Assembly (NCBI GenBank): GCA_951406725.2
Contig: OX597833.1
Span: forward strand, 10,974,001 to 11,038,000
Origin: Octopus vulgaris
Lineage: Eukaryota
Length of the DNA: 64,000 nt
Direction of reading: 5' to 3'
The translations under genes were made by a program, and so were the position numbers. Positions 1,261 to 57,616 of the stretch are shown here, one piece after another; the first letter of the stretch is position 1, and each line of letters opens with the position of its first letter. The notes under the pieces were generated by a model. It saw only the letters and a list, made by a program, of their open reading frames with translations, did not search any database and was not told the DNA's origin.

Positions 1261-1786
1261 TGATTATTTCGTAGCCTTAATTAGCTCCCTATTTGTTGTT
1301 TTATGTAATAGTATTATAAATATACCAGGTGATTTGTAGTACTTATTATATTAGTTTATTTTAGTTATTTAGGTTCTGTTTTTAATTATAGTTAGATTAT
1401 AGATGGTTGTTGATTTTATTACTAAATATTTTATTACTAAATATATTTTTAATAAATATTTAATGGTTTATTGAATATAGAGTCTGGTAAGTTACAATTT
1501 TATTTATTTTATATATTTTGTTATATTTCTATTATAACTTCGTTAAATTATAATTTTGTTATATTAATCTATTTGTATGTAATCTCATTATATTTGAAAT
1601 AGTTTTATTTAGTTGTTTATTTAATCCATATTATTTAATATAGAAGTATAGATTAGTAGATTAATATTTTAGATTTAACTTAATATTTACCTCTATTTTG
1701 TATTGTAGTATGATTATAGACATTTATATATCTATTTATTTATAATATATGTGGATGTGTGTGTATGTATATATGTGGATATGATG

Positions 1787-1830
<44 letters not shown>

Positions 1831-3452
1831 ACATTTATTTATATGTATGTGTGTGGGTGTGTATATATTGGTGTAAGTGTATATATTGAGTATTGTATGT
1901 ATGTACATGTATGTATGAGTGTGCATATGTGTATGGGTGTAAGTGTGTGTATGTATGTGTGTATATATGTATATGAATGTATGTGTGTATGTATGTGTAT
2001 ATGTGTATGTATATGTATATGTATGTATATATGTATATATATATGTATATATATATGTATATATATATGTATGTATATTTTCTTATATATTTATGTATAC
2101 GTATGTATAGTTATACTACAAATTTTGATAAGTATTTATAGATTTGTTATGATCACTAATTTTAGCTTATAATTATAAGGGCATGGGAAAGAATTTATAG
2201 TATGTAGAGGGGTTATTATATAAATTAATTTTTATGTATTTATTAATCTTATAAGATTTTTAGAATATATTTAATAATTAGTGGTTTTTAATCATTTAAA
2301 TCATTTAATTTAATTTGTATTAAGTTTCATTTATCATAGTTATTTTATTTATAAATATTATAGTATAGAGAGATTTCATTCTTTATTTGTGAATTCATTC
2401 TTTTTACAATGATAAACCTATAATTTTCCATTCATAATCTTTAATAAACGTAGGTTCCTCGCGCGTAATGAATTCTTCAACAATATATTCTTTTTTTTGC
2501 TAATAACGTAATTCCATGAGTATTCTTATAAACGCTGTAAAAGACGTTTTTTGATTCAAAATTTTAGTTCATTGATTAAACCTCGCCAAGTTAAGTATGT
2601 ATTTATTTAAGATCTTCAAATTGTAAATTTTAATATTGTATAAGCCTTTGGAGTAATAATATTCTCCTTATGTAAATATCGCTGTTTATGTAATGATCTA
2701 ATTATCGTAAGTTTCTATATTATTAGATATTAAATTTAAGTTTATTCGTAAGATACTTTTTAGTGATAGATTTATTATTTGATAGCAAGCATACTAGGTG
2801 TATTAAGTTAGGCTTTGTATATACACGTTTTAATAGTATTAATTGTAGTTTTAAATTTATAATCAAATTAGATAAACTTTGATAAATTTAGATATGTTTC
2901 GACTATAGATTGGTCTAGGCCATGACTAATTTAATAGCATAACTTAGTTATTTCTTTAAATTTATATTAGATAATTATTCCCATTCATAATTATATTTAT
3001 AGTACTTATAGTATTTATTCGATACTATATTGCTAAGAATTGATTATTTCTAAAAGTATTTTACATAAGATTTCTGAAAGTCCGTTTAAGTTTGTTTATT
3101 TGGATTTTGAAATTAGCTATTTCATCTTTAAATATGAAAAATTAAATTTATTAGGTTTTTATTATATACAATTATTTATAGAGATTATTTTAGATCTTGA
3201 TTATAATATTTATATATATATTTTCATTGATAATTTATATATATTAGTCATTTTAAATATTTATGTAATTAGATATAGACTAATATTGATATTAGATTAT
3301 GGGTTTCCTACCTTATAAATTAAAATTAATATTTAACATTATAGTCGATTTGGATATAATCATATTTGATAATAGAGTTTATTATAAGTAAAATTATTAT
3401 ATTATATATATTATTTATATCTTAAAAATATTGATTATATTTTAGATATTTA

Positions 3453-3521
3453 AACCACCTGATGAATGACTGTAACTCGAAAATTTAAAGAAATTAACAG
3501 CCATGAAACGATCGTAGTGTT
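3453..3521 (+). ncRNA. Type I hammerhead ribozyme in the PLE 3' pseudo-LTR
   Basis: cac-CTGATGA(3459-3465)-atgactgt...acagccat-GAAAC-gatc-GTA-gtg. Stem II is 8 bp with one mismatch, stem III is the palindrome ACGATCGT, predicted cleavage after GUA (3516). Confidence 0.85.
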
Positions 3522-3744
3522 ATATTAATAATATTTTTTTAATAATTTTGTTATATATTTAAATAATATAAATTAAATAATCTTATGTATTGGCTTAGGT
3601 TTTTCATTGTATGATTTGCCTAATAGTGGTTTTATCTCTAATTTAATATAATATAATATTTTACTACAAAATTGGATTCAATCCTAAATCTGATTTTACA
3701 CTGTAAGTTTGGATTTATTCCCTAATATTTATTATTATTATATG

Positions 3745-3830
<86 letters not shown>

Positions 3831-3836
3831 TATATA

Positions 3837-4710
3837 AATGCCAGGTCGAGCATCTCCTTGCTAGCGAAAGTCATGCCCCCTCAAATGATTCTGTAAACTA
3901 CGAAACAAATGGTAATCTGAAGGAGGAAGATCGGGAGAATAAGGTGGATGAGGAATTTTTCCCAACCAACCTCTTCGATCCTCTGTGGTGTGATGTTTGC
4001 ATAAGAAGAAAAGACCCCCTTTACCAAGCTACTGCTTACGACGTTTAACATTTCGATAGAAGATCCATTTTTCGTCACCAGTCACAAGTCTATCCAAAAT
4101 GGGTGAAATGAGTTCGCGAGAATGGAGAGAAGAGCAGATGTCAACTGGGCACTTGCGGTTGCTTTCGGACAATTCCTGAGGTACCCATATTCCAACTTTT
4201 GGAACCTTTCCAAGTTGCTGAAGATGACAATGAACAATTGTCTGGCTTGAAATAAGCTTTATTGCCAATTCTTCAACTAAAAATGAAGGATTTTCTTCAG
4301 GTAAGGCCTCATGGGAATTATCACTAAACTCACCTGGACGTCGTGTTCGATCCTCATCTTCTAGGCTGAAATTTCCACTTCTGAAATTTGCAAACCATCT
4401 TCTACAAGTTCTTTCATTCAAGCATTCTTTCCCATAAACCGAGTGTATGTTTCGAGTCGCTTCGTCTGCAGAGTTTTCTTTTCTTTTGTACTTATAAAGA
4501 ATTAAGTGCTTCAGATGTTCTTTGGATACTTCCACGTTAGAAAGGGTTTTAATCAAAGAAATTTTACTTTTATTATTCTGCAAAATAATATTTATTTAGT
4601 AAATATACAAATGCATAAATATCATTTTTAATTCCATTAGACATTCTAAAATATTAAATTTCATTCGATTTAAAAGAGAAAAATCGGACGGAACTTATGG
4701 GATGACCTGA
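3837..4710 (-). mobile_element. Internally deleted, truncated mariner (Tc1/mariner) transposon
   Basis: ORF 4029..4583 has the mariner HTH region (RRWFANFRSGNFSLED), WVPQEL and LVTGDEKWIFY. A shifted frame further on gives PHPPYSPDLPPSDYHLFRSLQN. The TIR-like end tcaggtcatcccataagttccgtccgattttt abuts TA at 4711-4712. Confidence 0.9.
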
Positions 4711-6131: not shown

Positions 6132-15420
<9,289 letters not shown>

Positions 15421-31301: not shown

Positions 31302-31355
<54 letters not shown>

Positions 31356-31747
31356 TACATAAGATTTCTGAAAGTCCGTTTAAGTTAGTTTATTTGGATT
31401 TTGAAATTAGCTATTTCTTCTTTAAATATGAAAAATTAAATTTATTAGGTTTTTATTATATACAATTATTTATAGAGATTATTTTACATCTTGATTATAA
31501 TATTTATATATATATTTTCATTGATAATATATATATATTAGTCATTTTAAATATTTATGTAATTAGATATAGACTAATATTGATATTAGATTATGGGTTT
31601 CCTACCTTATGAATTAAAATTAATATTTAACATTATAGTCGATTTGGATATAATCATATTTGATAATAGAGTTTATTATAAGTAAAATTATTATATTATA
31701 TATATTATTTATATCTTAAAAAATATTGATTATATTTTAGATATTTA

Positions 31748-31816
31748 AACCACCTGATGAACGACTGTAACTCGAAAATTTAAAGAAATTAACAGCCATG
31801 AAACGACCGTAGTGTT
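31748..31816 (+). ncRNA. Hammerhead in the 5' pseudo-LTR of PLE copy B
   Basis: cac-CTGATGA-acgactgt...acagccat-GAAAC-gacc-GTA-gtg; the loop-3 palindrome is broken by one substitution. Confidence 0.75.
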
Positions 31817-31818
31817 AT

Positions 31819-32193
31819 ACTCTTTACTCTTTTCCTCTTTTACTTGTTTCAGTCACTTGACTGCGGCCATGCTGGAGCACCACCTTTTAGTACTTATTCT
31901 ATCGGTCTCTTTTTGCCGAACCGCTAAGTGACGGGGACCTAAACACACCAGCATCGGTTGTCAAGCAATGCTAGGGGGACAAACACAGACACACAAACAC
32001 ACACACATACACATATATATACATATATACGACAGGCTTCTTTCAGTTTCCGTCTACCAAATCCACTCACAAGGCATTGGTCGGCCCGGTGCTATAGCAG
32101 AAGACACTTGCCCAAGATGCCACGCAGTGGGACTGAACCCGCAACCGTGTGGTTGGTTAGCAAGCTATTTACCACACAGCCACTCCTGCGCCT
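31819..32193 (-). mobile_element. tRNA-derived SINE (cephalopod type) inserted into the PLE 5' pseudo-LTR
   Basis: Reverse strand starts aggcgcaggagtggctgtgtgg (A box) ... gggttcagtccc (B box), has an internal CA/TA repeat and a short tandem tail. Absent from the other two pseudo-LTR copies. Confidence 0.85.
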
Positions 32194-32464
32194 ATATTAA
32201 TTATATTTTTTTAAATAATTTTGTTATATATTTAAATAATATAAATTAAATAATCTTATGTATTGGCTTAAGTTTTTCATTGTATGATTTGCCTAATAGT
32301 GGTTTTATCTCTAATTTAATATTATATAATATTTTACTATAAAATTGTATTCAATCCTAAATCTGATTTTTCCCTGTAAGTTTGGATTTATTCCCTAATA
32401 TTTATTATTAATTAATATATTGATAAATTACGTATATTGAGTGTAACATCTCAACTTCGTAATT

Positions 32465-34917
32465 ATGGAATTTACAGGTAAGATAGAACCGCTATTTTGG
32501 AATTCATCATTGAAGGATATTCCAGTACCTTCTAGAAAGGAATTTATTTTGAAACTTATTAATAATATTAAGGATTTTTTTCTAGAATTAAATGGAAAGC
32601 TTACTATTATAACTATAATATATCTAATCTCAATGATAGTATGAATGATAATTTTACCTCTAATTTTAAATCCAAAAAGGAACCCCATTTAATAGAGAAT
32701 TACAAAGACTAGAAGATAATATTTGGAAGGTGGTGAAAAACATTAAATTTCATAAATACCCAAACAGAAATAATGAATCTTTAAGAAATTTAGCAATTAG
32801 AATAAAAGAAATGAGAAATATGGATGGTATTATTGTACAATCTGATAAAACTAGGAATCTCTATAAATTAGATGTTGAATTATATGATAACCTTTTAGAG
32901 AAAGAAATAATTAAAAAATATAAAATTGTTCCAGATAGTAAACTTTATAATATTAATAAGGCCTCTAAATTAGTAATGATAAACTATGAATTGGATAATA
33001 AAACTGAACCTTATGTACCTATGCACCCTAGAATTACTCTGAAAGACCATTAAGATAATTTTTATTCAGACCCTAAAGTTTAATTTGTCCATGTAAATGT
33101 GACCTCGGTAAATTAAGTAAACTTATTTTAGATAAATATATTAAGAAATTAAATAAACTTAATTACTTAAAATTATGGTTTAGTAATGATAATACTTTGA
33201 ATTGGCTTAATAATATTAAAGATAAAAATCGATATAAATTTATTCAAATAGATATAGTTAATTACTATTCTTCTATTAATGAAATTGTGTTTAATAAGGC
33301 CCTTATTTTTGCAATGAATAAAGTGGGAATGACATTTGAAGAAGTTAATGTAATTAAAATGGCTAGGAAATCGCTTATTAAATATAAAAATAAATTATGG
33401 GCCAGGAAAGATACTAGGGATTTTTTTGATATACCTATGGGAGCACCTGATTCTGCACAAGCTACGGATTTAGTAGGTATTTATCTTTTATCTGAACTCC
33501 AATTAGAAAATTTAAAAATAGAGGGTAGTTTATATAGGGATGACCTTCGACTAATTACTAAGAATTGCACTAATAGGAACCTAGAAGTATATAAGAAAAA
33601 ACTTTATAGTTTCTTTAAAAGATATGGTTTAAGTATCACTATATATAATGAGAATTTTAATGTTAATTATTTCGATGTTAATTTTAATCTAATTACAGGT
33701 AAAACACAACCATATCATAAACTTAATGAGAACCTTAGATATATAAACGTTAATAGTAATCACCCACCATCAATTAAAAAATCGTTGATTAATAATATAA
33801 GTAAACGTATATCATTACTTTCTTATGATTTAGAGATTTTTAATAAACATGCTCCTTATTATAATGAGGCCCTTAGAGAGGCAGGGTATAATAGTAATAT
33901 TAAATTTTTTATTAAAAATAAAGATAAAGATATAACTAATAATATTAGAGATAAAAATATTAATAATAGTAATAATAATTTTGTTAGTAATAGTGGTAAT
34001 AATATTAGAAATTATAAAAATAAAAATAAAATAAATAAAAATAAGAATAAAAATAAAAATAAAAATAAAATTAATAACTTCAATAATTCTTTAAATGTTA
34101 ATTATAAATATAAATCTGATAATAATAATATAAATATGATAAAGAAATATAATAACAACAATAATAATGACAGTTTTAGTAATAAGAAGAAGGAAAATTA
34201 GAATAAAATTTGGTTAATAGTTCCTTATGGTGCTCAAGTTAAAACGAACATTATTAAAGAGATTTTAGATATTATTGAACTATTTATTCGAGATAATCGT
34301 AAATATAAAAACATTTTCTCTAGTAATAATTTTGGAGTAGGTTATTCCACCACTAATAGTGTAGGTAACATTATTTCTTCTTTTAACAAATTTAAACTGA
34401 ATAATTTTTATAAAAATAAAGTATATAATAATACCAATAATAAAGACAAGACACTAATTAACTGTGCATGTAGAGATAAAACTAAATGTAAATTAAATAA
34501 TAAATGTGATACTAATGATGTAGTGTATAAATGTATAGTTACATTACATGATAAGAATAATAAGAATAATTATAACTCAAACGCATTATATATATAGGGT
34601 CCACTTCCTCTAAAATAAAATTAAGAATCGCACAACATATGAATTCATTTAAAAATAAAAACTTAATTAACTCCACTGGACTTAGCAAGTACATTTGGAG
34701 ACTTAAATTCCAAAATATTAATTATAATTTATCTTGGGAAATAATTAGTAAAACTAAATCATATACTATAGGAGCGAATTTTTGTTATTTATGTTCTAAT
34801 GAGTTTAAGGAAATTTTATTTTATAAGCATGATAATTTACTGAATAGCTGTGATGAGCGCAAAATAAAATGCAGACACAAGTTACTTTACTTATATAATA
34901 AATTTCTTGATAAATAA
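32465..34917 (+). pseudogene. PLE polyprotein (RT + C-terminal GIY-YIG) disrupted by stops and frameshifts
   Basis: N-terminal SLKDIPVPS...RIKWKA; RT motifs FIQIDIVNYYSSI, FDIPMGAPDSAQATDLVGIYLL, LYRDD, YFDVNFNL; GIY-YIG and CYLC..KCRH. Lesions near 32580, 33051, 33080, 34199 and 34590. Confidence 0.9.
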
Positions 34918-35440
34918 TGATTATTTCTTAGCCTTAATTAGCTCCCTATTTGTTGTTTTATGTAATAGTATTATAAATATACCAGGTGATTTGTAGTATT
35001 TATTATATTAGTTTATTTTAGTTATTTAGGTTCTGTTTTTAATTATAGTTAGATTATAGATGGTTGTTGATTTTATTACTAAATATTTTATTACTAAATA
35101 TATTTTTAATAAATATTTAATGGTTTATTGAATATAGAGTCTGGTAAGTTACAATTTTATTTATTTTATATATTTTGTTATATTTCTATTATAACTTCGT
35201 TAAATTATAATTTTGTTATATTAATCAATTTGTATGTAATCTCTTTATATTTGAAATAGTTTTATTTAGTTGTTTATTTAATCCATATTATTTAATATAG
35301 AAGTATAGATTAGTAGATTAATATTTTAGATTTAACTTAATATTTACCTCTATTTTGTATTGTAGTATGATTATAGACATTTATATATCTATTTATTTAT
35401 AATATATGTGGATGTGTGTGTATGTATATATGTGTATATG

Positions 35441-35483
<43 letters not shown>

Positions 35484-37107
35484 ACGATTTATTTATATGT
35501 ATGTGTGTGGGTGTGTATATATTGGTGTAAGTGTATATATTGAGTATTGTATGTATGTACATGTATGTATGAGTGTGCATATGTGTATGGGTGTAAGTGT
35601 GTGTATGTTATGTGTGTATATATGTATATGAATGTATGTGTGTATGTATGTGTATATGTGTATGTATATGTATATGTATGTATATATGTATATATATATG
35701 TATATATATATGTATATATATATGTATGTATATTTTCTTATATATTTATGTATACGTATGTATAGTTATACTACAAATTTTGATAAGTATTTATAGATTT
35801 GTTATGATCACTAATTTTGCTTATGATTATAAGGGCATGGGAAAGAATTTATAGTATGTAGAGGGGTTATTATATAAATTAATTTTTATGTATTTATTAA
35901 TCTTATAAGATTTTTAGAATATATTTAATAATTAGTGGTTTTTAATCATTTAAATCATTTAATTTATTTTGTATTAAGTTTCATTTATCATAGTTATTTT
36001 ATTAATAAATATTATAGTATAGAGAGATTTCATTCTTTATTTGTGAATTCATTCTTTTTACAATGATAAACATATAATTTTCCATTCATAATCTTTAATA
36101 AACGTAGGTTCCTCGCGCGTAATGAATTCTTCAACAATATATTCTTTTTTTTTGCTAATAACGTAATTCCATGAGTATTCTTATAAACGCTGTAAAAGAC
36201 GTTTTTTGATTCAAAATTTTAGTTCATTGATTAAACCTCGCCAAGTTAAGTATGTATTTATTTAAGATCTTCAAATTGTAAATTTTAATATTGTATAAGC
36301 CTTTGGAGTAATAATATTCTCCTTATGTAAATATCGCTGTTTACGTAATGATCTAATTATCGTAAGTTTCTATATTATTAGATATTAAATTTAAGTTTAT
36401 TCGTAAGATACTTTTTAGTGATAGATTTATTATTTGATAGCAAGCATACTAGGTGTATTAAGTTAGGCTTTGTATATACACGTTTTAATAGTATTAATTG
36501 TAGTTTTAAATTTATAATCAAATTAGATAAACTTTGATAAATTTAGATATGTTTCGACTATAGATTGGTCTAGGCCATGACTAATTTAATAGCATAACTT
36601 AGTTATTTCTTTAAATTTATATTAGATAATTATTCCCATTCATAATTATATTTATAGTACTTATAGTATTTATTCGATACTATATTGCTAAGAATTGATT
36701 ATTTCTAAAAGTATTTTACATAAGATTTCTGAAAGTCCGTTTAAGTTTGTTTATTTGGATTTTGAAATTAGCTATTTCATCTTTAAATATGAAAAATTAA
36801 ATTTATTAGGTTTTTATTATATACAATTATTTATAGAGGTTATTTTAGATCTTGATTATAATATTTATATATATATTTTCATTGATAATTTATATATATT
36901 AGTCATTTTAAATATTTATGTAATTAGATATAGACTAATATTGATATTAGATTATGGGTTTCCTACCTTATGAATTAAAATTAATATTAAACATTATAGT
37001 CGATTTGGATATAATCATATTTGATAATAGAGTTTATTATAAGTAAAATTATTATATTATATATATTATTTACATCTTAAAAATATTGATTATATTTTAG
37101 ATATTTA

Positions 37108-37176
37108 AACCACCTAATGAATGACTGTAACTCGAAAATTTAAAGAAATTAACAGCCATGAAACGATCGTAGTGTT
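37108..37176 (+). ncRNA. Hammerhead in the 3' pseudo-LTR of PLE copy B with core mutation CTAATGA (probably inactive)
   Basis: Otherwise identical to 3453-3521; G5A in the catalytic core. Confidence 0.7.
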
Positions 37177-37411
37177 ATATTAATAATATTTTTTTAATAA
37201 TTTTGTTATATATTTAAATAATATAAATTAAATAATCTTATGTATTGGCTTAGGGTTTTCATTGTATGACTTGCCTAATAGTGGTTTTATCTCTAATTTA
37301 ATATAATATAATATTTTACTACAAAATTGGATTCAATCCTAAATCTGATTTTACACTGTAAGTTTGGATTTATTCCCTAATATTTATTATTATTATATGT
37401 ATGTATATATA

Positions 37412-37650: not shown

Positions 37651-38523
37651 AATGCCAGGTCGAGCATCTCCTTGCTAGCGAAAGTCATGCCCCCTCAAAT
37701 GATTCTGTAAACTACGAAACAAATGGTAGTCTGAAGGAGGAAGATCGGGAGAATAAGGTGGATGAGGAATTTTTCCCAACCAACCTCTTCGATCTTCTGT
37801 GGTATGATGTTTGCATAAGAAGAAAAGACCCCTTTACCAAGCTACTGCTTACGACGTTTAACATTTCGATAGAAGATCCATTTTTCGTCACCAGTCACAA
37901 GTCTATCCAAAAAGGGTGAAATGAGTTCGCGAGAATGGAGAGAAGAGCAGATGTCAACTGGGCACTTGCGGTTGCTTTCGGACAATTCCTGAGGTACCCA
38001 TATTCCAACTTTTGGAACCTTTCCAAGTTGTTGAAGATGACAATGAACAATTGTCTGGCTTGAAATAAGCTTTATTGCCAATTCTTCAACTAAAAATGAA
38101 GGATTTTCTTCAGGTAAGGCCTCATGGGAATTATCACTAAACTCACCTGGACGTCGTGTTCGATCCTCATCTTCTAGGCTGAAATTTCCACTTCTGAAAT
38201 TTGCAAACCATCTTCTGCAAGTTCTTCCATTCAAGCATTCTTTCCCATAAACCGAGTGTATGTTTCGAGTCGCTTCGTTTGCAGAGTTTCCTTTTCTTTT
38301 GTACTTATAAAGAATTTGGTGCTTCAGATGTTCTTTGGATACTTCCACGTTAGAAAGGGTTTTAATCAAAGAAATTTTACTTTTATTATTCTGCAAAATA
38401 ATATTTATTTAGTAAATATACAAATGCATAAATATGTTTTTTAATTCCATTAGACATTCTAAAATATTATATTTCATTCGATTTAAAAGAGAAAAATCGG
38501 ACAGAACTTATGGGATGACCTGA
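37651..38523 (-). mobile_element. Mariner remnant (duplicate of 3837-4710)
   Basis: ORF 37842..38396 with WVPQEL and LVTGDEKW; same TIR end and same internal deletion. Confidence 0.9.
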
Positions 38524-39258: not shown

Positions 39259-40133
39259 TACATTTTGATTATCATAAATTTATCGTCAGCAGAAATATTC
39301 TAATAAGATTAAGTGTAAATAAAATGGAATAATCTTTAACATCAGGTTTGTTATGAAGTAACCAATAAAAACACTAGACTGCATTAAATAAAGCTTTGCA
39401 GTTACAGTCTGTACAGATGTTGAACGGACAATGTAGTCCCCTACATGAATATTACAGCAGTTTCGCAAAAATAAAGAAGTAAACATTAAGAAATAATAAA
39501 TAAGAATTCTTCAACAAATTGGCATTTGTTTTCAGTTTACAAATTTGTGCTGAAGTCAGTAAAATATTCTGCTGACTGTTCTGTGTTAATCATGGATCAT
39601 CTCCATCCAATCACAAAAGGTGTCATTTAAAAGGTGACACCCACAATTATTGTAATATCAATCTGATTGGTTCCTGAATTTACGATTAGATTTTCGGCAG
39701 GGTTGGGTTGTGGAGGGGGAACAATATTAAAAAGCCGGAATCAGACGTCAACAATTTTCAGTTACGATCCCAAAGCGAGAAGCTCACACTTATAAACTCC
39801 AGCTTACATCAACTTCAGATTTATCATTAAACCAAAACGAAGTAACAGGCTGCACGGACGACCGAAAACCGCAATGGAAATCGCTCAGGTGGGGAAGATC
39901 ATTTGGCAGCGGTTTTCCGTTTCTTCTTTCATAACTTTTGGACTGTGTCTCGTGTTGACCATCACGATTCTTCATTTCGATGCAAGGACCAGAAAGATAG
40001 AAGAAAAATCAACCGCAATAAGTACAGGACACCTGAAGTTTCTATATTTTAGATGCAAGAAAATGTATATATCCATCCATATCCATCCATCCATCCATAC
40101 ATATATAGACACGTGTATATATATGTATGGTTT

Positions 40134-40173
<40 letters not shown>

Positions 40174-40187
40174 GGGGGGTTTATGTG

Positions 40188-40258
<71 letters not shown>

Positions 40259-40596
40259 ACATATATTTATGTATGTATATATTCATACATACACATACAC
40301 ACACAAACAAACACACATCATCTTCTCACATTCGTTTCTCTCTCTTTCACGTTCTTTTCCTCTTCTCCTTTTCATCATCTTAATCCTTTTTATCCTCTTA
40401 ATCCTTTTTTCCTCTTAATCCTTTTTATCCTCTTAATCCTTTTTATCCTCTTAATCCTTTCTGTCGAAAAGCGTGCGGTCGAAATACAAAAATCTCTTCC
40501 ATTCTACCCGAGTGTTGAAATTAATGGACTTGCTTGTGGTTTCTACACCTGTCCTTTTCTTTTGTTTTCTGTAAATTTGAAATCTCTCTCTCATTC

Positions 40597-40689
<93 letters not shown>

Positions 40690-40740
40690 ATCTATCTGTC
40701 TATCTATGTATCTATCTATCCATCTATCTATGTATCTATT

Positions 40741-40804
<64 letters not shown>

Positions 40805-40876
40805 AATACTTACACCGCCAAGTAGTAGTAATTCAGAAATTAGGTGAAAATTTAAAAACATTTACCCTAATTCATC

Positions 40877-40974
40877 TTTTAGACGATGCATCGTTTCTGT
40901 GTCATTAATGATTAAATTAGCTTAATTAAATTAAATTAAGCTAATCTACCATAGGTTACACTTCATCAGTAAAA
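40877..40974 (-). ncRNA. Type I hammerhead, R474
   Basis: Reverse complement of 42001-42098. Confidence 0.82.
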
Positions 40975-41349
40975 AACCTGGGAGAGACAAATATACACGA
41001 GGCGTCTGTATCGATGCCTACGGAATATCTGTCTTAAAATTTTCAAGACTGACGTATTCGCGCCAAACTTATCAGCAGTAAATATAAACTGCCGATTCAA
41101 TCTCAGAATTATTCAGAAAATTATCAATTAGTCAATTTAGGGTAGCAAAAAAATTCAATAGAAATTTGTCGCTACCAGCGGCCTAGTGGAAAGAGAAAAT
41201 AGTCAACGACTAAATATATAAATATAACAATTTAGGAGTGACCCTAACAGGTCATTCGTCCACCAGAAAGAGCAGCCATAACTCACACCGCCAAGTAGTA
41301 GTAATTCAGAAATTAGGTGAAAATTTAAAAACATTTACCCTAATTCATC

Positions 41350-41447
41350 TTTTAGACGATGCATCGTTTCTGCGTCATTAATGATTAAATTAGCTTAATT
41401 AAATTAAATTAAGCTAATCTACCATAGGTTACACTTCATCAGTAAAA
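41350..41447 (-). ncRNA. Type I hammerhead, R474
   Basis: Reverse complement of 42001-42098 with one stem II substitution. Confidence 0.8.
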
Positions 41448-42000
41448 AAACCTGGGAGAGACAAATATACACGAGGCGTCTGTATCGATGCCTACGGAAT
41501 ATCTGTCTTAAAATTTTCAAGACTGACGTATTCGCGCCAAACTTATCAGCAGTAAATATAAACTGCCGATTCAATCTCAGAATTATTCAGAAATTATCAA
41601 TTAGTCAATTTAGGGTAGCAAAAAAATTCAATAGAAATTTGTCGCTACCAGCGGCCTAGTGGAAAAGAGAAAATAGTCAACGACTAAATATATAAATATA
41701 ACAATTTAGGAGTGACTCTAACAGGTCATTCGTCCACCAGAAAGAGCAGCCATAACTCACACCGCCAAGTAGTAGTAATTCAGAAATTAGGTGAAAATTT
41801 TAAAACATTTACCCTAATTCATCTTTTTGCTACCCTAAATTGACTAATTGATAATTTTCTGAATAATTCTGAGATTGAATCGGCAGTTTATATTTACTGC
41901 TGATAAGTTTGGCGCGAATACGTCAGTCTTGAAAATTTTAAGACAGATATTCCGTAGGCATCGATACAGACGCCTCGTGTATATTTGTCTCTCCCAGGTT

Positions 42001-42098
42001 TTTTACTGATGAAGTGTAACCTATGGTAGATTAGCTTAATTTAATTTAATTAAGCTAATTTAATCATTAATGACACAGAAACGATGCATCGTCTAAAA
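42001..42098 (+). ncRNA. Type I hammerhead, R474
   Basis: tttta-CTGATGA-a-gtgt...(attagcttaatt/aattaagctaat hairpin)...acac-a-GAAAC-gatgcatc-GTC-taaaa. Stem I is 5 bp; stem III is the palindrome ACGATGCATCGT. Confidence 0.85.
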
Positions 42099-42474
42099 GA
42101 TGAATTAGGGTAAATGTTTTTAAATTTTCACCTAATTTCTGAATTACTACTACTTGGCGGTGTGAGTTATGGCTGCTCTTTCTGGTGGACGAATGACCTG
42201 TTAGGGTCACTCCTAAATTGTTATATTTATATATTTAGTCGTTGACTATTTTCTCTTTTCCACTAGGCCGCTGGTAGCGACAAATTTCTATTGAATTTTT
42301 TTGCTACCCTAAATTGACTAATTGATAATTTTCTGAATAATTCTGAGATTGAATCGGCAGTTTATATTTACTGCTGATAAGTTTGGCGCGAATACGTCAG
42401 TCTTGAAAATTTTAAGACAGATATTCCGTAGGCATCGATACAGACGCCTCGTGTATATTTGTCTCTCCCAGGTT

Positions 42475-42572
42475 TTTTACTGATGAAGTGTAACCTATGG
42501 TAGATTAGCTTAATTTAATTTAATTAAGCTAATTTAATCATTAATTACACAGAAACGATGCATCGTCTAAAA
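42475..42572 (+). ncRNA. Type I hammerhead, R474
   Basis: Same as 42001-42098; stem II base gtgtaa/ttacac is perfect. Confidence 0.85.
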
Positions 42573-43277
42573 GATGAATTAGGGTAAATGTTTTTAAATT
42601 TTCACCTAATTTCTGAATTACTACTACTTGGCGGTGTGAGTTATGGCTGCTCTTTCTGGTGGACGAATGACCTGTTAGGGTCACTCCTAAATTGTTATAT
42701 TTATATATTTAGTCGTTGACTATTTTCTCTTTTCCACTAGGCCGCTGGTAGCGACAAATTTCTATTGAATTTTTTTGCTACCCTAAATTGACTAATATAT
42801 ATATAAATATATATATGAACGCATTCTTTCAGCTTCCATTTAGAACAGAGGCTTCTTACCATGCAGCCAGGCCTGCACCTACAGAAATCGTTCCCATGCC
42901 GGCAATCGAACCCTGACCGACTGAACGATAGCTAGGAATTATATGTGTGTACATATAACATATACACACATAATTGTTATATATTTCAGCCAGTATAGGC
43001 CCAGGCTATGTATAACTTAATAGCACAAAGTGGTGAAGCAGTTTAGAATCTGATTTCCATCTCAGTCATAAGACTTTTTAATGTTGGAGACTTATCCGTG
43101 TGTCGGAGGCTGGTCGAAAAGTTTTGGGGGGAAAATTTGTCCTTAGAAATTTTAAATTTTATGGAATCTGTTTTCGCTTTAACGTATTCTGCTATAATAT
43201 TAAAGAGAGCTGGACCGGTTGAGGTAAAGTAGTCGCGTCATATACACATATACATACATATATACATATATGTATAG

Positions 43278-43310
<33 letters not shown>

Positions 43311-43350
43311 AATATATTATATATATGCATATATATATATATATATATAT

Positions 43351-43520
43351 AAAAAAGGAAAAATATTATTAATATAACACGACGATCGTTTCATGGCTGT
43401 TAATTTCTTTAAATTTTCGAGTTACAGTCATTCATTAGGTGGTTTAAATATCTAAAATATAATCAATATTTTTAAGATATAAATAATATATATAATATAA
43501 TAATTTTCCTTTTTTATATA
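43351..43520 (-). mobile_element. PLE pseudo-LTR fragment carrying the hammerhead (43376-43444, CTAATGA variant, GTC site) in (TA)n of copy C intron 1
   Basis: Reverse complement matches 3395-3535. Confidence 0.8.
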
Positions 43521-43550
43521 TCACCACTCGTGTTCGACATCTCCTTTTTT

Positions 43551-43584
<34 letters not shown>

Positions 43585-43614
43585 TACATATATATATGTA
43601 TATATATTTATATG

Positions 43615-43695
<81 letters not shown>

Positions 43696-43863
43696 ACATA
43701 TGTATACACGCACATATATAAAATTATGTCTTGTATATATATCTACTAACATATTAATGGTTGGACGATTTTTAATGTGTTTAGAGAGATCGATAGTTAG
43801 AACTATCGATCGTTTGATAAATAGATATATTGGTAGATAGGTGGACAGCCTGACTGAGTGTTT

Positions 43864-43925
<62 letters not shown>

Positions 43926-44418
43926 AATATCGATTGATTTGATAGTTTCATTCACGTTATATATTTTGCTTGGAAATTTTGGCTCGTGGTCATAAATGTC
44001 AGGAAGTTGTAGTTCGATTCCTTACAGGCCAGTGATGAACAGGTTCTGAATTCATGGACCTCGAAAGGATAAAGACAAGGCGCGACTACGCGGAATTTGA
44101 TCATTATCTTGAAATATTCAGTATTGTAGATGACAATTATAAAAGTCCCTAGAAAGGTTGTGCGATAGATAGTGTTGCAAAATAGAAAGCAATGAATTTG
44201 TCAATTACTATACGTAGCAAAGACATGGGATTACAAAAACTGAAAGGTAGTTTACAAGTCAATAATGAATTGTGTTCCATGTTGTAAGATAGAGATTGAC
44301 ATTTCTTGCTGAAACATTTTACATAGAAAGGCCTTATATATGTACGTCTGCCGCTTTCGTTTGTATACATAAATGAACATGTATGAATGCATCGCTTCAT
44401 GTGTATATTCGAATGTGC

Positions 44419-44454
<36 letters not shown>

Positions 44455-44628
44455 CCGCACACATATATGTATGTGTGTGCGTGTTTTTATTTCTGGATGA
44501 AATTTTTTCCTCTCTAGATTCAGCTCAGAGCTGCGTCCATGATGATGCACCATACATACATACATACACATATACATACATACATACACATATACATACA
44601 TACATACATACATACATACATACGTACA

Positions 44629-44662
<34 letters not shown>

Positions 44663-45039
44663 CATACATATAAAAGTACATACATACACCCATGCAGACA
44701 CACAGACACAATGACACACGCATACACACACAGAGATGCACAGAAATATAGATACATACACTATGGTCTGTTTCTTCGGATGACGTTTTCGTGCTTAATT
44801 GCCGAAGAATTCCTGGGATGATTTGTTTCCAGAGCTCCCTCCGTCAAATTAATGAACATGTCCAAAAATGTTCCATACGATCAATTGTCGATATATTTGC
44901 AGTGCAGTGCAAATAGTGTTGCTCAAGAACACAACGCCCTGCCTTCTGTTTGAATCGAACGCACAACCCATTATTCGTGAGTTTAAAACCTGAAGCACTA
45001 AACCACGTTTAAATATTTTAGCGTATATAAATATATGTA

Positions 45040-45426
45040 TCTCTCTATATATAAACGGCAGTTTGTCTGTGTGTGCTTCTGTGTGTCTGTTTGCTTGTAC
45101 CCTCACTCTGACCACGGCTTTCAACCGATTCTGATGAAACTTGACACACACATAGCCCAATGTCATAATTCAAAACTAACGCAGCGAAAATTTTGAAAAG
45201 TTCCCCCAGTTCTTAAAAAGATCGATAAATTCAACATGGGGTACACAATCAGAAATACAAACCACAGATGGTCATGGGGACGCAACTCGACCTTTTTAAC
45301 TATCAAAAAATAATTTACCATCTTTTTTTTCCCATTTTTTTGCTATTTTTTGGCTATAACTCTCAAAAAAAAATCCTTTATAGTTATTTCCTTACAAACC
45401 CGAGCAACGCCGGGCGATACTGCTAG
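45040..45426 (+). mobile_element. Non-autonomous Helitron-like element (duplicate of 9908-10291)
   Basis: Same TC...CTAG termini, hairpin and insertion site. Confidence 0.8.
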
Positions 45427-47976
45427 TCTATCACTATAAGGAAGACTTACATAAGCGAACAAACACGCATTCACATGCGGAAAGATACACACAAACGCAT
45501 ATATATCGGCTTGTTAGACCGCTGAATTCCGCGCAGGTCTTTTTCCGTGAAAATAAATATCTTTTCCATTGAAAGAAAAATATGTTTAAAAATATAATAC
45601 GTAGAAAGCGAAATGAATCGGGTCTGAGATATCTACCCGCCTTTTTGAAGATTTACAAACTGGAAGATTAGTTTTTCTAAATGCATTTGCAACATTCTCC
45701 GTGCGTGTTTTCGTTCGTTAGGCTTAATTAACTCTCATTGTGATGGGTTCGTTTTTGCCATATAAAAGCATGAAATAAAGGAGTACCCGATGCACAGAGG
45801 AGATAAGAAAGAGGTAAGCCACCAAGATGTAACACAATGATGAAAATTTGGTGGAATTAACAATGAAGTTGTCTGCCACATCTTCAAAAGAAGCTGTCCA
45901 AAAGTGCAATTATTGTATTGCTTAGCTTTAAATTCTAAACATTGATGAAAGTTCTGAAAATCTATTTCTATGATGTTATTTCAATTTTTTCACAGAACCG
46001 TTTCCTTTTCAAGAAATCTCTGGATGACAAAGCTGTTCACACGCCAAGTAAGAACTAATTTTATATCGTGCAAGATAAAAACGTAATAGAAATGTCCGTG
46101 GCCGAATTAAATATTATAAAATATTCTGTTTCAATCTCTTTTAGCTAAATTCATTTAAATGTGTCTCCTCACCTACTGGCTTCTAATTCTTTTCCGGTTC
46201 CATTCGTTTTTCATTACTTACCCTATCTGCTCAACGAAATACACAACTATAAGTTGGATGCGTAAATCAAATTGAAAATGTAACCCTCCTATGCTATGAT
46301 ATTAACTATGTTTATATGAGTTTATATGCAGGACCACGTCAATAAATGAAAGCAATTTTGTGTACACGTTAGACTATAATCTGGAAATAAGTATGTAAGA
46401 AATATTTTAATTTCAGATCTAATGTTAGTGTAAGCAATAAGAAATTGTAGGGTTTACCCTGTGTTGTAGTAAGAAAGAGAATCAATAAAACCATCCACAT
46501 ATTGTTGTTGCTCAGTAATTCTGCGAGTCTGGTGGTTGTAGAGAAACCAGGCACCTGTCTTTGAGTGACATTCCAGAGGGAAGCAATTGTTATTAAGATT
46601 ACCGGTTAGGTTGACATGCGTAACCAATTTGAGCCGATGGTATTACCTGCGCATCTCTTTTCTGGTCTATCCCCAGATCCCTCGCCGGCTGATCCAGATT
46701 GAAGAGTTTGTATTGTGATTCTTTTCTGTGAGATTGAAATCGCATGTCCTTAGTACAGGAGCTGTCATCTCTCAATGCAGAGAATCAGATGTTCGAACTG
46801 GAGACATTTGCTGATTTCTGATTAACCATCGCAGTCGAATAACGTTGCTCAAGAGATCCCTTGCAATTCGCATAATTTCAGTCGTAGTATTTCAGTCACG
46901 AAATTTTAACTTCTACACCAAATGTCAATGTTTTCTACGTTCAACACTAATGTAATGTTTTCTACCTTCGTGTTCCGTACTATTTCTGGTTTAATATTTT
47001 GCATCTTCTGTAAATTTGCAGGTTCAATACTTAAGAACATTCTAGAAATATTTTTAAAGACAAATGTTAAATTCTCTTTGCACCTAAAATTAAAAATAAA
47101 TTAATAGCAGCATATCTGTTACAAAAAAATACATTTCTACAGAATTTTTATTTTGAAATAATGTTATATTCTAATTACATCATTAACAAGTATTGTTGCA
47201 ATACGTGAAATTTATATTTTAATATGATTTTTATATGTTTAAGTTCTAATGCATAAAAACATATTAAAATATGAAATCGCAAAAATAAATTTCATAACTG
47301 TTTTAATATTTTTGGACGGGTTTTTTTCCAACGCATTTGTCTCACTGAACGATTTCATTTCATTTTAAATAATACATTTCTTCTCTCTAAAATGAATCAA
47401 TATTTTAAATTCTTATCAAAAACTTATTACCATTACCCTTTCGTTACTTAAAGCCACATAGCTGAATTTGTAGCACATATATTTTGACAAAGCTTTCACC
47501 ATAAGATTCATTTCATAGAACTCTTTAACCGGCAAAGCGGAGAAAGAAGCGGCTTGCAGCGGCTACAGAAAATCCATTGAAGCGCAAACTAGAATAAAGT
47601 GATCAATGAAATCAGATGATGCATTTCATAACACTAAATATCTTAGAATGACAAAAATATTCTCATTTATTTACAATGATTTCACGTATTTTGATCTAGT
47701 CTTTTATTTAATACGCCAAACTTGAATTAATTTATCTCAAAACATTTAGCTCAAGACTCGATCATCATTGCTAAAAACCGCATTGAATTCGGCTGAGAAG
47801 TGAATTAGTGATGAATCATGCAAATCTTTACCAGTAACTAAAAGTATACATTCACCCCCAGGCGTGGGGGACTATTTCTCGGAATCAGCTTTACGTTCAG
47901 AGGAGAAAGAATTTTCAAACCCTTTGTTTGTTTGTTTGTGTCTTTCTTTCATTCTCTCTTTTTTTCTTTCTTTGCT

Positions 47977-48051
<75 letters not shown>

Positions 48052-48349
48052 CTCTTTCTTTCTTTCTTTCTTTCTTTCTTTCATTCATTTTTTACTCATT
48101 AAATCCTCTGTCCTAGAAAACCTTCGTTCGTACGTTCGTTTGTTCGTTCCTTTCTACCTCCAACGCCTTTTCCTTCCTTCCGTCCTTCATCCCTCCTTTC
48201 ATTCCTTCCTGCTTTCCTTCCTTCCTCCTTTTCTTCCTTTCTATCTATCTCTCTTTTTGTCTTTCTTTCTTTTGTTCTACCTTTCTTTCTTTCTTTCCTT
48301 CTGTCTTTCTATTTGTCTTTTTTCTTACTTCCTACCACCACTCCTTCCT

Positions 48350-48393
<44 letters not shown>

Positions 48394-48866
48394 TCCTTCC
48401 TTATTTCATTCCTTCCTTTCTTCTTTCTTTCCTTCCTTTCTTCCTTCCTTCCTTTCTCCCTCCTTCCCACTCTTCCTTCCTTCCGTCCCGCTACCTCTTT
48501 CTTTCTTCCTTCCTTCCTTCCTTCCTTCCTTCCTTCCTTCCTCCCCTTCCCTCCCTCCTTCCTTCCTTCCTTCCTTCCTTCCTTCCTTCCTCCCTTCCTT
48601 CCTTCCTTCCTTCCTTCCTTCCTTCCTTCCTCCCTTCCTTTCTTCCTTCCTTCTAATCATTGTCTCCCCAATTCATTAATTCCCAGCCAAGAAATTCTCT
48701 CCCACATGGTTCACCAATTATTTTCTTTTAAACTACATTGTTTCCTTCGCAATTTCACAGGACCCTGTCCTGGATCCCTGTATACCCGGTGGGGTAGAAC
48801 AAAATGTACACGTAATTCAAGTCTGGTATACGATGGTTAGTATATTTTGTTTCTAATCTCTCACTC

Positions 48867-48908
<42 letters not shown>

Positions 48909-51882
48909 TCTCTCACTTTCCCTCCTTCTTTCTGATTATAGTATATAATCTTTTCCTATTATAGTATATCACGTTTTAAACGGCGATTATAGATTCTCCT
49001 GAGATTACACGAAACTACTTTCACCGTTGAATTTATTTGGTCATAGGCGAAATATAAATGCCGTCAAGAATGATCACACGAACAGGGTATCATCGAAATT
49101 ACCCCCTTGAACCCAACCACAGAATATAGTTACCTAAGGACTGTATGCATTCACTACGCACTATTCCACCACTTAATCACGCTAGTGCCTCATGGTAAGG
49201 CAATTCTGAGCTTTCCACTCAGAGGACACTATTTTCCACCTCTTCCCCATCAACTTTTCTTTCTATAAACGAGATTTTTTTTGCTTGAAATAGGATGGAA
49301 CAGATTTTACCTGTCTATAACCGAACCCTTAACAGTTTCCTTAAAGGTTTCCCAATTCAGCCTAAACTGAACCTTACAATCCTTTCTCCACTCACTTTCC
49401 TTAAGATTTAAAAGGACCCCAGTGATGCAGCAAATAAAGCCAACGTGACCATCACGTGTATCTTCACGTGACCTGTCCACGACTAGCCGAGAGTTTCAGC
49501 TACGCTGTGCAGGATGTTCTGTGAAATAACTTTTAACTACCCATCGACTGTCAATACTCTGCACCTCACCGTGATCTTCTATTTTATATTGGTTAAAAAT
49601 TCCTTGCATCGTTCTTCTATTTCATCTCCGTTAAAATTTGAACAAAATCGTCTTTTCCATTTTAGAGGAAATGCGTGACGTAACGGCCTTCCCTTCGCAC
49701 TCTTTTGACATCTGCACACAACCATCTACAGCCATGTATCTAGACATATTCATAAATATTACCTACACAAACACGTTGGCGTACACCTACAACATATATA
49801 CATATAAATCATAGACACGTACAGTTCTTAACTCATACACAAACATTCATTCAGCAACACGGCTTACACTCGCATCGATAGTAGTTTGTATACACAAAAC
49901 CTACACACGTAAACATAGTGAATGTTCAAACACATAGACACACGCACACGCGCACACACATAGACGCAAAGACACACACACACACATGCAGACACACCAC
50001 CGTATGTGTGTGTATATATAATCACCAATTTAAAATTGAAATTTCCTTTTCAAGGATTTCTTTTAATCCACGTTTTTCTTATTTCACTTTACTTAATATT
50101 TTCTTTATTTGATATATTCTTACCAATTCTAGGTGTGGTTGGTGGAACAGCGCATAACGAAACAGGCGGCGGAAGTAATCTCTTGTGTCTACCTAACGAC
50201 CCCATTTGGGCCAATTACATTGGCGTTGTTGCAGGTGGGGGTCACATATATGGCAGTGAATATCAAACATCAAATTCCTATTTGATAGAACACTTTTCTT
50301 TTGCTAACGCTGAATCACTTTTTGATCACAACGTTCCGTGTGCTGTCTGTTTGACACGACAACCTGCTGTTGTTATGATGTTACCAGCCAGGACACAGTG
50401 ATACCCTGGTTGGACAGCTGAATATTCAGGATATTTGATGACCGAACATCATACACATAAGGGTAGACATGAATATGTGTGTGTGGACTATGCACCAGAA
50501 GCTGATCCAGCAGGTTACAGAAACGAAAATGGAGCTTTATTATATTTTGTGAAGGGAGTTTGTGGTTCATTACCATGTCCACCGTATGTCTATGGTCGCG
50601 AATTAACCTGCGTTGTGTGCAGTAAATATTGAAGGGAATATAGTTGAATTTGCTTCTCTATGAAAACTTATGTTAACCAATTACAAGACATAATATAATA
50701 TCATAAAACAATATAGACATTTTAAATTCTGTTTGATAATATTTTATCGAAGTTATATAAATCGTTAAAATACTCTGCGCTACTAGTTAACAGGAAAATA
50801 TTATAATGGAGAGAAAATCGGCGCCAGAGAATGTGAGAATTATGCTTATAGAACAATGCAAAGCTGAGTGAATAATTCTAGATAAACAATGTATAAGGAT
50901 CAGTTCATAAAACTAAAATGTGGAAATAAAATTGTATTTCCTTTAACTGTATTTTGTGTTCTGTCTTAAATATCAATAAACCCCATTTGAAGTAATATCA
51001 TAGAAATATATGATGGTCCCATCATTTTTGAGAGGAATGTAAGTAGGAATCCTCTCACCACCTATTTGGTTTTCACCTGTACCTATACAACCTCGTGGTC
51101 CCCGCCACAAGATTAGTTGACATCCTCATAACCGGAACACGTAACCCTCACACCTTGCACCATTTCCTAAACACTGATGCACAACAATCAGGAATGGAAT
51201 CACCTGGGAGTATCGAATGCGAACAATTCTCTCACTGAAAAGCAGAAAAATGGTAAATTGGAGCAAAGATTTGCTTTACAACACTTACCACATACATAGA
51301 AAGCAGAGTAAAGACAGCAAAAGGACGTAGAAACATAATGAGGCTAAGCAAAGTTACTCTGTGTAAAATGTGTGATATGTTGAGACTGTTACAGGACATC
51401 CAATAAGAAACATCACTATGTGTTAGTGTAGAATATTCCTTAGATAAAAAAGAAGAAGATGGATATTTGGGAGACACAACGTCTTTCATGCAAGTAATTG
51501 AGTGCCATAATGTTGCCATTAAGAAAATGCATGTATTTAGACATTTATAATAGGAATCAACTTTAAAAGTATACATGTGTGTGTGCTTAACCCAATAAAC
51601 CTTTTGGAAAATTCGGACAGAGAATCGTAGCTACGTTTGAGTAGCACAGAGTGCGTTCTGTTTCAGTAAATATTTCTGCGATATGATATTTTAGATGAGC
51701 ACAACCGTCTATTTATTTGTTTAATACTATTATACACTCGACGTATTTACTCCCGTCATAACATGGACAAATGGCATGCATCTAATCAAATCTTAAGTTT
51801 CCCTGCTGGAATGTACGCACATGTTCAGACTCGCCCGGCTGCACACAATCTGACAGCCGTATTGCTTTTATAGCGAAGTAAC

Positions 51883-54177: not shown

Positions 54178-54480
54178 AGTAAAAAGGTAATAAAATAAAT
54201 TACTATTACCGGTGATCTAGCACGACCCTATACCAGAACCCTCTCTGTTTGTCGGGTATGTTTTGCGTCTGCGCAATGGTCTGAAAAGTTAGAGAATGCA
54301 AGTCGGCAGAACCGCACATGCTTCTAACGATATGTACTTCTAGGATAACAAAGGCTGCTTACTGAAGAGTCTAGCCTTGGCAGATAAATTATATTTTTCT
54401 GCTAAAAAAAAGACGAAACTGCAGTATAAGATGAGCCGAGTTTGTAAACGTTTTTGATTTTCATTTCATTGAATTTATCC

Positions 54481-54485
<5 letters not shown>
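54178..54485 (+). mobile_element. Partial retrozyme-like unit related to R445, in (TA)n
   Basis: Shares ttttgcgtctgcg, tgaaaagtta, agcctt..tgctaaaaa and gtaaacgtttttgattttca with 57200-57420; contains an HHR. Confidence 0.75.
54358..54430 (+). ncRNA. Type I hammerhead
   Basis: ctta-CTGAAGA-gtct...agac-GAAAC-tgca-GTA-taag; stems I and II are perfect and stem III is the palindrome ACTGCAGT. Confidence 0.85.
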
Positions 54486-54529
<44 letters not shown>

Positions 54530-56614: not shown

Positions 56615-56676
<62 letters not shown>

Positions 56677-56774
56677 TAAGGGCTCCTAAATAAAGATGCC
56701 GAGTGCTGGGAACACAAAAAGGGGATGAATTTATCGAGAGTGAAAATCAAAAACGTTTACCGATAAATTTAACA

Positions 56775-56848
56775 ACTCGTACCGCGGTTTCTGCTTCTTT
56801 CTAGCAAAACACAGAATATGTTTGCTAAGGCTGTCTTCATCAGCGAGT
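56775..56848 (-). ncRNA. Type I hammerhead, R445 left arm
   Basis: Reverse strand actcg-CTGATGA...GAAAC-cgcg-GTA-cgagt. Confidence 0.78.
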
Positions 56849-57309
56849 CGCCTGAATTTAATCAAGGTCTGCAGCGATGTGGGGCTATATGTTAAACCCG
56901 ACTACTAGCAGATCTTAACTTTTCAAATCTCTGCGCAGACGCAAAATTTACACGGGCATGCCGGGAAGAATTTTACGAATAAATTCATCATGTAGTATGC
57001 AAATATAAACAAGGCATCTTTATTTAGGAGCCCTTAATTGTATAACCACATGAATAATATTTTTCTATATGAATAATATTTTTGTCTTATGATTAATTCG
57101 TCTTTTGTGCTGGGCACCTGGTAGTAAATAATATTACTACCCTTCTTGTTTATATTCGCATACTACATGATGAATTTATTCGTAAAATTCTTCCCGGCAT
57201 GCCCGTGTAAATTTTGCGTCTGCGTAGAGATTTGAAAAGTTAAGATCTGCTAGTAGTCGGGTTTAACATATAGCCCCACATCGCTGCAGACCTCGATTAA
57301 ATTCAGGCG

Positions 57310-57383
57310 ACTCGCTGATGAAGCCAGCCTTAGCAAACATATTCTGTGTTTTGCTAAAAAGAAGCAGAAACCGCGGTACGAGT
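57310..57383 (+). ncRNA. Type I hammerhead, R445 right arm
   Basis: actcg-CTGATGA-agcc...ttagcaaa/tttgctaa hairpin...gca-GAAAC-cgcg-GTA-cgagt. Stem I is 5 bp, stem III is the palindrome ACCGCGGT, and the base of stem II is weak. Confidence 0.8.
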
Positions 57384-57616
57384 TGTTAAATTTATCGGTA
57401 AACGTTTTTGATTTTCACTCTCGATAAATTCATCCCCTTTTTGTGTTCCCAGCACTCGGCATCTTTATTTAGGAGCCCTTAATTGTATAACCACATGAAT
57501 AATATTTTTCTATATGAATAATATTTTTGTCTTATGACTAATTCGTCTTTTGTGCTGGGCACCTGGTAGTAATAATATTACTACCCTTCTTGTTTATATA
57601 TATATATATATATATA

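Follow-up and report, generated by a model that had tools for sequence, protein, structure and literature searches.

Two ranges have been given for the length of the retrozyme unit, 170-400 nt (Cervera and de la Pena 2020, PMC7229834) and, later, 51-972 bp (Li, Clavereau and Pollet 2026, bioRxiv 10.64898/2026.07.22.740005). According to the accessible text of these two reports, retrozyme motifs from the axolotl cut better as dimers, and self-cleavage in vitro was seen in only one of nine predicted Xenopus retrozyme dimers (Li 2026, bioRxiv 10.64898/2026.07.22.740005). Animal retrozymes have been argued to be non-autonomous derivatives of Penelope-like elements, or PLEs (Li 2026), and their mobilization by PLEs has been proposed on the basis of co-occurrence and terminal-repeat homology (Li 2026; Craig 2021, PMC8557442), with the role of the PLE hammerheads described in the same sources as unclear. 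PLE hammerheads combine a palindromic helix III with an unpaired base at position 9/10.1 (Cervera 2014, PMC4209133).

The insertions of PLEs are likewise distinctive, in that an inverted, 5′-truncated copy and TA targets are typical of them (Craig 2021, PMC8557442). A PLE protein in purified form was found to nick AT-rich DNA, to extend both of its strands, and to prime within the RNA (Frangieh 2024, PMC11167929), and pairs of opposite-strand hammerheads 100-700 bp apart have already been noted in Schistosoma (PLE literature: PMC8557442, PMC11167929, PMC4209133). A literature search, with most subscription papers outside its reach, found no study of cephalopod retrozymes.

The window analyzed here is a stretch of 64,000 nt of Octopus vulgaris DNA. 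At the place given in a preliminary description made from the letters alone, it contains what that description had proposed, an array of near-identical tandem hammerhead units, here called R474, arranged as an inverted repeat of about 2 kb (Table 1). The array was confirmed by Tandem Repeats Finder, which reports a period of 474 in both arms (2.2 copies at 98% in the left arm, 2.1 copies at 99% in the right), and by self-BLAST, in which the arms are mutual reverse complements over up to 822 bp at 99.1%. The arms are about 0.4% divergent.

Table 1. Features of the R474 locus and of other elements in the 64,000-nt window.
Feature	Position in window	Strand	Details
Left arm, 2.15 units of 474 nt	40808..41827	- (ribozyme sense)	
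Right arm, 2.05 units of 474 nt	41824..42796	+ (ribozyme sense)	
Head-to-head junction	41824..41827	.	four T residues fit both arms (microhomology)
One cut-to-cut R474 monomer, 474 nt	42094..42567	+	
Type I hammerhead, left unit 1	40874..40977	-	core position 40969; predicted cut 40882/40881
Type I hammerhead, left unit 2	41347..41450	-	core position 41442; predicted cut 41355/41354
Type I hammerhead, right unit 1	41998..42101	+	core 42006-42012; extra A 42013 and 42077; stem II 42014-42076; GAAA 42078-42081; palindrome 42081-42092; predicted cut 42093/42094
Type I hammerhead, right unit 2	42472..42575	+	core position 42480; predicted cut 42567/42568
Target-site duplication, left copy	40794..40808	+	13-15 bp, TA repeat with AAA interruption
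Target-site duplication, right copy	42795..42809	+	
Host gene copy, "short-chain collagen C4-like" family	39874..50632	+	exons mapped with Octopus proteins
Host exons	39874-40017, 45996-46046, 48763-48837, 50132-50629	+	R474 array in intron 1
Second hammerhead repeat, 445-nt unit	56669-57599		cores 57315 (+) and 56843 (-); head-to-head between TA tracts
Third, partial hammerhead element	54180-54486		core 54362; between TA tracts
Decayed AT-rich Penelope-like element	31351-37180 (about 31350-37180)		duplicate 1-3836; fragment 43373-43511

Monomer positions are counted from the first base past the predicted cut. On this numbering, the left arm runs from a 5′ end at position 2-6 through two full units to a 3′ end at position 74, and the right arm from a 5′ end at about position 202-205 through two units to a 3′ end at position 229. 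The arms are joined 5′-to-5′ at the center, and their 3′ ends point outward into a (TA)n tract. Because the two starts differ, the palindrome is offset and has a loop of about 190 nt. Measured against the majority letter, the units, which together span about 1,990 nt, carry five substitutions and three one-base homopolymer indels, a count from which one mismatch at 41823, belonging to the other arm, was excluded. All eight differences are private to single units, and seven of them lie in the left arm. That so few differences separate the units supports the preliminary view of a young insertion. In stem II of left unit 2, one sense-strand A-to-G change at 41373 keeps a G-U pair; as a single event, it allows no inference about editing.

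Like the animal non-LTR retrozymes in the accessible descriptions, R474 is non-coding (no open frame of more than 55 codons in the monomer, even read as a circle), tandem, and low in GC (about 35%, below 45%), with one type I hammerhead per unit. Its monomer is highly self-paired (fold z-score of -6.5 against shuffles, 0/100), it forms dimers to short multimers, PLEs co-occur with it, and LTR features are absent. The preliminary description had regarded the monomer as unusually long, a claim that did not hold: 474 nt exceeds 170-400 nt (Cervera 2020) but falls within 51-972 bp (Li 2026).

A core-plus-stem scan of both strands found seven hammerhead cores in the 64 kb, four of them within the R474 array. 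Each R474 hammerhead contains CUGAUGA, GAAA, and a GUC cut triplet, and the core (C3-A9, G12-A15.1, U16.1-H17) and the three stems are complete in all four copies. Stem I has five Watson-Crick pairs plus three, and stem II retains G10.1-C11.1. The anatomy noted at the outset, with an AT-rich stem II (63 nt), an A on each side of it, and a 12-nt palindromic stem III, recurs in four of four copies. The 63-nt stem II and the extra A on both sides set R474 apart from the animal non-LTR retrozymes as described in the accessible text, whereas the palindromic stem III and the unpaired base at 9/10.1 are shared with PLE hammerheads (Cervera 2014, PMC4209133). Rfam models gave no family match at gathering score in the window and no hammerhead at E≤10 in 41821-42330, and because no family matches, the ribozyme assignment rests on core and stem anatomy. 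The long stem II is the likely reason for the absent hammerhead match; the core may suffer from the unpaired A that precedes G12. The preliminary reading of the array as a retrozyme gains support from the consecutive tandem units in each arm, each with a complete type I hammerhead. A plain satellite without a ribozyme is ruled out by the four intact cores, the dimer-type stem III, and the target-site duplication.

In the predicted fold of a two-unit sense RNA, stem III forms between neighboring units with a pairing probability of 0.74, compared to about 1e-6 for the monomeric arrangement, and an enforced double hammerhead reaches -171.8 kcal/mol versus -159.0 kcal/mol for two monomeric ones (12.8 better). 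The complete double hammerhead is predicted to lie 3.3 kcal/mol above the minimum fold, with low predicted probabilities for stem I (0.13 and 0.001). The R474 hammerheads are predicted to be self-cutting, with a palindromic stem III that follows the known dimer design. Among the 40 substitutions listed for contigs that match R474 (34 more exist), none falls in a core; in sequencing run X1, a variant at 42000 (21,500 of 68,445 depth) converts a U-G wobble in stem I to C-G.

One target-site duplication brackets both arms, which indicates that the array is a single insertion and rules out two independent ones. The AAA interruption of the duplicated TA repeat is found once at the paralogous site of gene copy 1 and on both sides of the R474 array, and TA tracts ending with it number 8 of 82 in the window. 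The paralogous introns of gene copies 1 and 2 do not contain the array. A MITE or fold-back DNA transposon is ruled out by the arms, whose tandem units are permuted and whose ends are unequal. The paralogous TA tract of gene copy 1 contains a different insert of 150 bp, at 7060-7214, which ends in (ATT)n and lies a few bases from the place that corresponds to the R474 site; no further copy of it was found in the window.

Near-perfect inverted repeats are a known artefact of long reads, and the structure could in principle stem from a fold-back long read or a mis-joined repeat in the assembly. The three homopolymer indels in one arm would fit such an origin, as would the center junction, which is not among the 32 contig pieces listed (3871 more exist). 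A fold-back read, however, would mirror the flank, and the flanks are collinear with those of two paralogs; the target-site duplication and the offset of the arms also argue against an artefact. Moreover, the right junction is bridged by a short-read contig of run X5, which is possibly the assembly's own sample (42746-42843, one difference, reaching 51 letters into one side and 47 into the other). An assembly error is therefore considered very improbable.

Based on these data, the array is, with good confidence, an animal non-LTR retrozyme that inserted once and recently, likely through PLE machinery that primed from both nicked strands of a (TA)n tract. Its kind is already known: the repeat belongs with the animal non-LTR retrozymes, and its inverted layout is one described for Penelope-like elements. 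The Penelope-type traits present at R474 are the inverted, 5′-truncated arm, the (TA)n target, and the target-site duplication. A simple model would suggest that, in tandem sense RNA, neighboring units pair through their palindromic stems III to form a double hammerhead, and that the RNA would then cut itself to monomers that could be circularized, as shown for the coral, mussel, and axolotl retrozymes. A PLE-like endonuclease and reverse transcriptase would be the likely insertion machinery. Each nicked strand would have primed inside the R474 RNA, at monomer positions 74 and 229, and each cDNA would have copied the same RNA about twice round, either as a circle or as a multimer still uncut. 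Joining of the two cDNAs end to end would yield the head-to-head arms. The arms cover the same sequence more than twice, so that a circular or multimeric template is needed.

The comparison with PLEs reveals both parallels and departures. The partial tandems, the inverted 5′-truncated copy, the TA target, and internal priming on both strands match the PLE insertions in the accessible literature. Unlike PLEs, R474 has no reverse transcriptase or endonuclease, and both arms exceed two units. It has no open reading frame and no PLE terminal-repeat homology within the window, and thus is not an autonomous PLE; alignment scores of R474 against the PLE repeats in the window lie within those of shuffles. 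The tail of 30-40 bp that PLEs carry between two priming sites, as described in the accessible sources, is absent from R474, where 155 nt of the monomer separate the two 3′ ends (one locus). LINE-1 twin priming likewise produces a single insertion in which the 5′ part is inverted and the 5′ ends meet at a microhomology, with one target-site duplication. R474 resembles it in the inversion, the microhomology at the 5′ junction, and the single duplication but differs in lacking poly(A) priming. The literature search found no study that links twin priming to Penelope. For retrozymes, a discussion of the head-to-head, two-arm layout with a duplication was not found in the accessible text of PMC7229834 and bioRxiv 10.64898/2026.07.22.740005, and the words "inverted" and "target site" are absent from the text of PMC7229834.

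Junctions of other R474 copies bear on how the inversion arose. Contigs from three runs contain 12 strand-switch joints of head-to-head geometry, which were retained from at least 16 in a single contig set after exclusion of three in flanking sequence and one same-strand deletion; the shorter sides of the joints span only 18-29 letters at 88% likeness. Among the joints listed, 5 of the 12 end at monomer positions 1-15 compared to 0.59 expected (P 1.6e-4, or about 0.02 when any 15-nt window is allowed). At the R474 locus itself, the 5′ end of the left arm lies 1-5 nt from the predicted cut, a proximity with a chance of about 2.5% for one of two ends. A tentative and rather doubtful extension of the insertion model is that the ribozyme cut sets the stop of reverse transcription in vivo and that the freed cDNA end is joined or snaps back to generate the inversion, in a layout that would also mask the ribozymes in any read-through RNA. 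A hairpin at about monomer positions 9-44 adjoins the predicted cut, and its snap-back explains the excess of joints at the cut equally well as ends set by the ribozyme. The center ends of the 445-nt repeat, at 212 and 80, are both away from its own cut. According to the accessible text of Frangieh 2024 (PMC11167929), cleavage is dispensable in vitro, and no RNA-seq ends fall at the cut.

The same joints could also reflect an inversion that followed a one-way insertion of the tandem retrozyme, by fold-back repair at the DNA level or by template switching at the microsatellite. Five of the 12 are symmetric fold-backs, which library artefacts can mimic (one of them recurs in two studies); three of the 12 have an end at 400-432, within the strongest hairpin, that of stem II, and the concentration of unit differences in one arm would also agree with a later event. 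Such a sequence of events is nonetheless quite improbable, as the single target-site duplication encloses both arms, and the ends (74 and 229) and starts (2-6 and 202-205) are unequal, from which it follows that neither arm copies the end of the other.

R474 belongs to an abundant family. The R474 stretch is present in 20 of 24 listed runs, from eight studies and three organisms, and contigs that match it number 2006, 1270, 576, and 26 in four runs of one organism. Variants and other junctions in the contigs of three runs identify R474 as a dispersed multi-copy family. In run X5, an exact 90-nt R474 contig has a depth of 3388 compared to 12.7 for the junction contig; depth does not equal copy number, and the ratio is a rough hint at hundreds of copies. 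At monomer position 188, all four units of the locus carry C, whereas the contigs placed at 42281 almost all carry T (148,174 of 148,189 in X1; 16,122 of 16,379 in X2; 1,194 of 1,194 in X5). The shared C hints at a single template for all units, with the proviso that contig placement among near-identical units may bias this comparison. None of the 24 listed runs is recorded as RNA, and the set thus says nothing on R474 expression. Parts of R474 are covered by contigs of run X3, which can only be guessed to be an RNA run, and one 300-nt contig spans the predicted cut; 3 of the 15 changes listed are A>G, and contigs of this type cannot show transcription, strand, ends, level, or editing. A tRNA scan returned none, and a bacterial promoter scan, a method unsuited to an animal genome, was at chance level.

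Two further hammerhead elements share the window with R474. The 445-nt repeat is distinct in sequence but, like R474, has stem II flanked on both sides by an extra A, and its 3′ ends, at 111 and 222 (one locus), both fall at TATA-like letters. Around the ribozyme, the partial element resembles the 445-nt family at about 71%, and it has neither of the extra stem II A residues. Over the whole unit, the similarity of R474 to the 445-nt family is within that of shuffles; in the R474 comparison, only the partial element exceeded every one of the 60 shuffles. All three families share a motif of about 21 nt, placed 16-20 nt 3′ of the predicted cut (42110-42130, 57398-57418, 56740-56760, and 54444-54464). 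Eight of nine window matches to its 14-letter form lie within these families, a count for which the shuffle test is partly circular, the pattern having been built from these copies. That the motif is a promoter or a protein-binding site is a guess.

The decayed Penelope-like element contains reverse transcriptase-like and GIY-YIG-like frames with stops, as well as a terminal-repeat hammerhead with a 6-nt palindromic stem III. Atlas neighbors of the reverse transcriptase-like frame have RVT_1 in 12-42% of their members, and the duplicate shows a weak GIY-YIG match at 841-1257 (E 1.8e-4); PDB and Pfam searches of the reverse transcriptase piece gave no match. Remnants of a mariner-type transposase are located at 37842-38408 and 4029-4595 (the first with HTH_48, E 3.6e-16).

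The gene copy that hosts R474 is the third in a tandem "short-chain collagen C4-like" cluster at 6132-63991. Its exons share 87-100% identity with proteins named from Octopus sinensis or O. vulgaris, which supports the cephalopod source assumed in the preliminary description. The donor of exon 1 reads AT, versus GT in two paralogs, and exon 4 has an in-frame stop, features of the sequence that make this copy a probable pseudogene. Elsewhere in the cluster, copies 1 and 2 appear intact, and the final exon of the last copy carries a frameshift.

The preliminary description had further proposed that transcription through the inverted repeat gives long double-stranded RNA, a likely substrate for ADAR or Dicer. 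This proposal stands in part. The array does lie in intron 1, and the predicted fold of a read-through RNA has 810 inter-arm pairs, with helices of up to 289 bp and an energy of -1499 kcal/mol; on the other side, the exon-1 donor of the host copy is dead, and its exon 4 is interrupted by a stop. The predicted fold buries both plus-strand hammerhead cores, and since the antisense arm comes first, read-through from either flank would mask the ribozymes. Action of ADAR or Dicer on such an RNA would be conceivable, and editing of such a hairpin, if it is transcribed, would be ordinary. A stronger version, in which a hairpin read through from the host intron undergoes hyper-editing or dicing and acts as a regulator of the gene or of the retrozyme family, would draw on the intronic position and the extensive predicted pairing between the arms. 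It is improbable, given that the host copy looks like a pseudogene, that conservation is not to be expected of an insertion so young and so specific to one copy, and that the inversion is an ordinary insertion layout, repeated in the same window by the 445-nt repeat. The long hairpin is better explained as a side effect of Penelope-type insertion than as a device for making double-stranded RNA.

As a locus, R474 is ordinary, a single young member of an abundant repeat family that lies in an intron of a probable pseudogene. Its value lies in the clean footprint, a two-armed, multi-unit insertion with one target-site duplication, consistent with double priming on an RNA that was circular or multimeric. 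If the ribozyme cut does set the ends of the cDNA, inversion joints would preserve in the genome a trace of hammerhead activity during Penelope-type insertion, and an excess of joints at the cut that held genome-wide would tie ribozyme cleavage to the insertion cycle.
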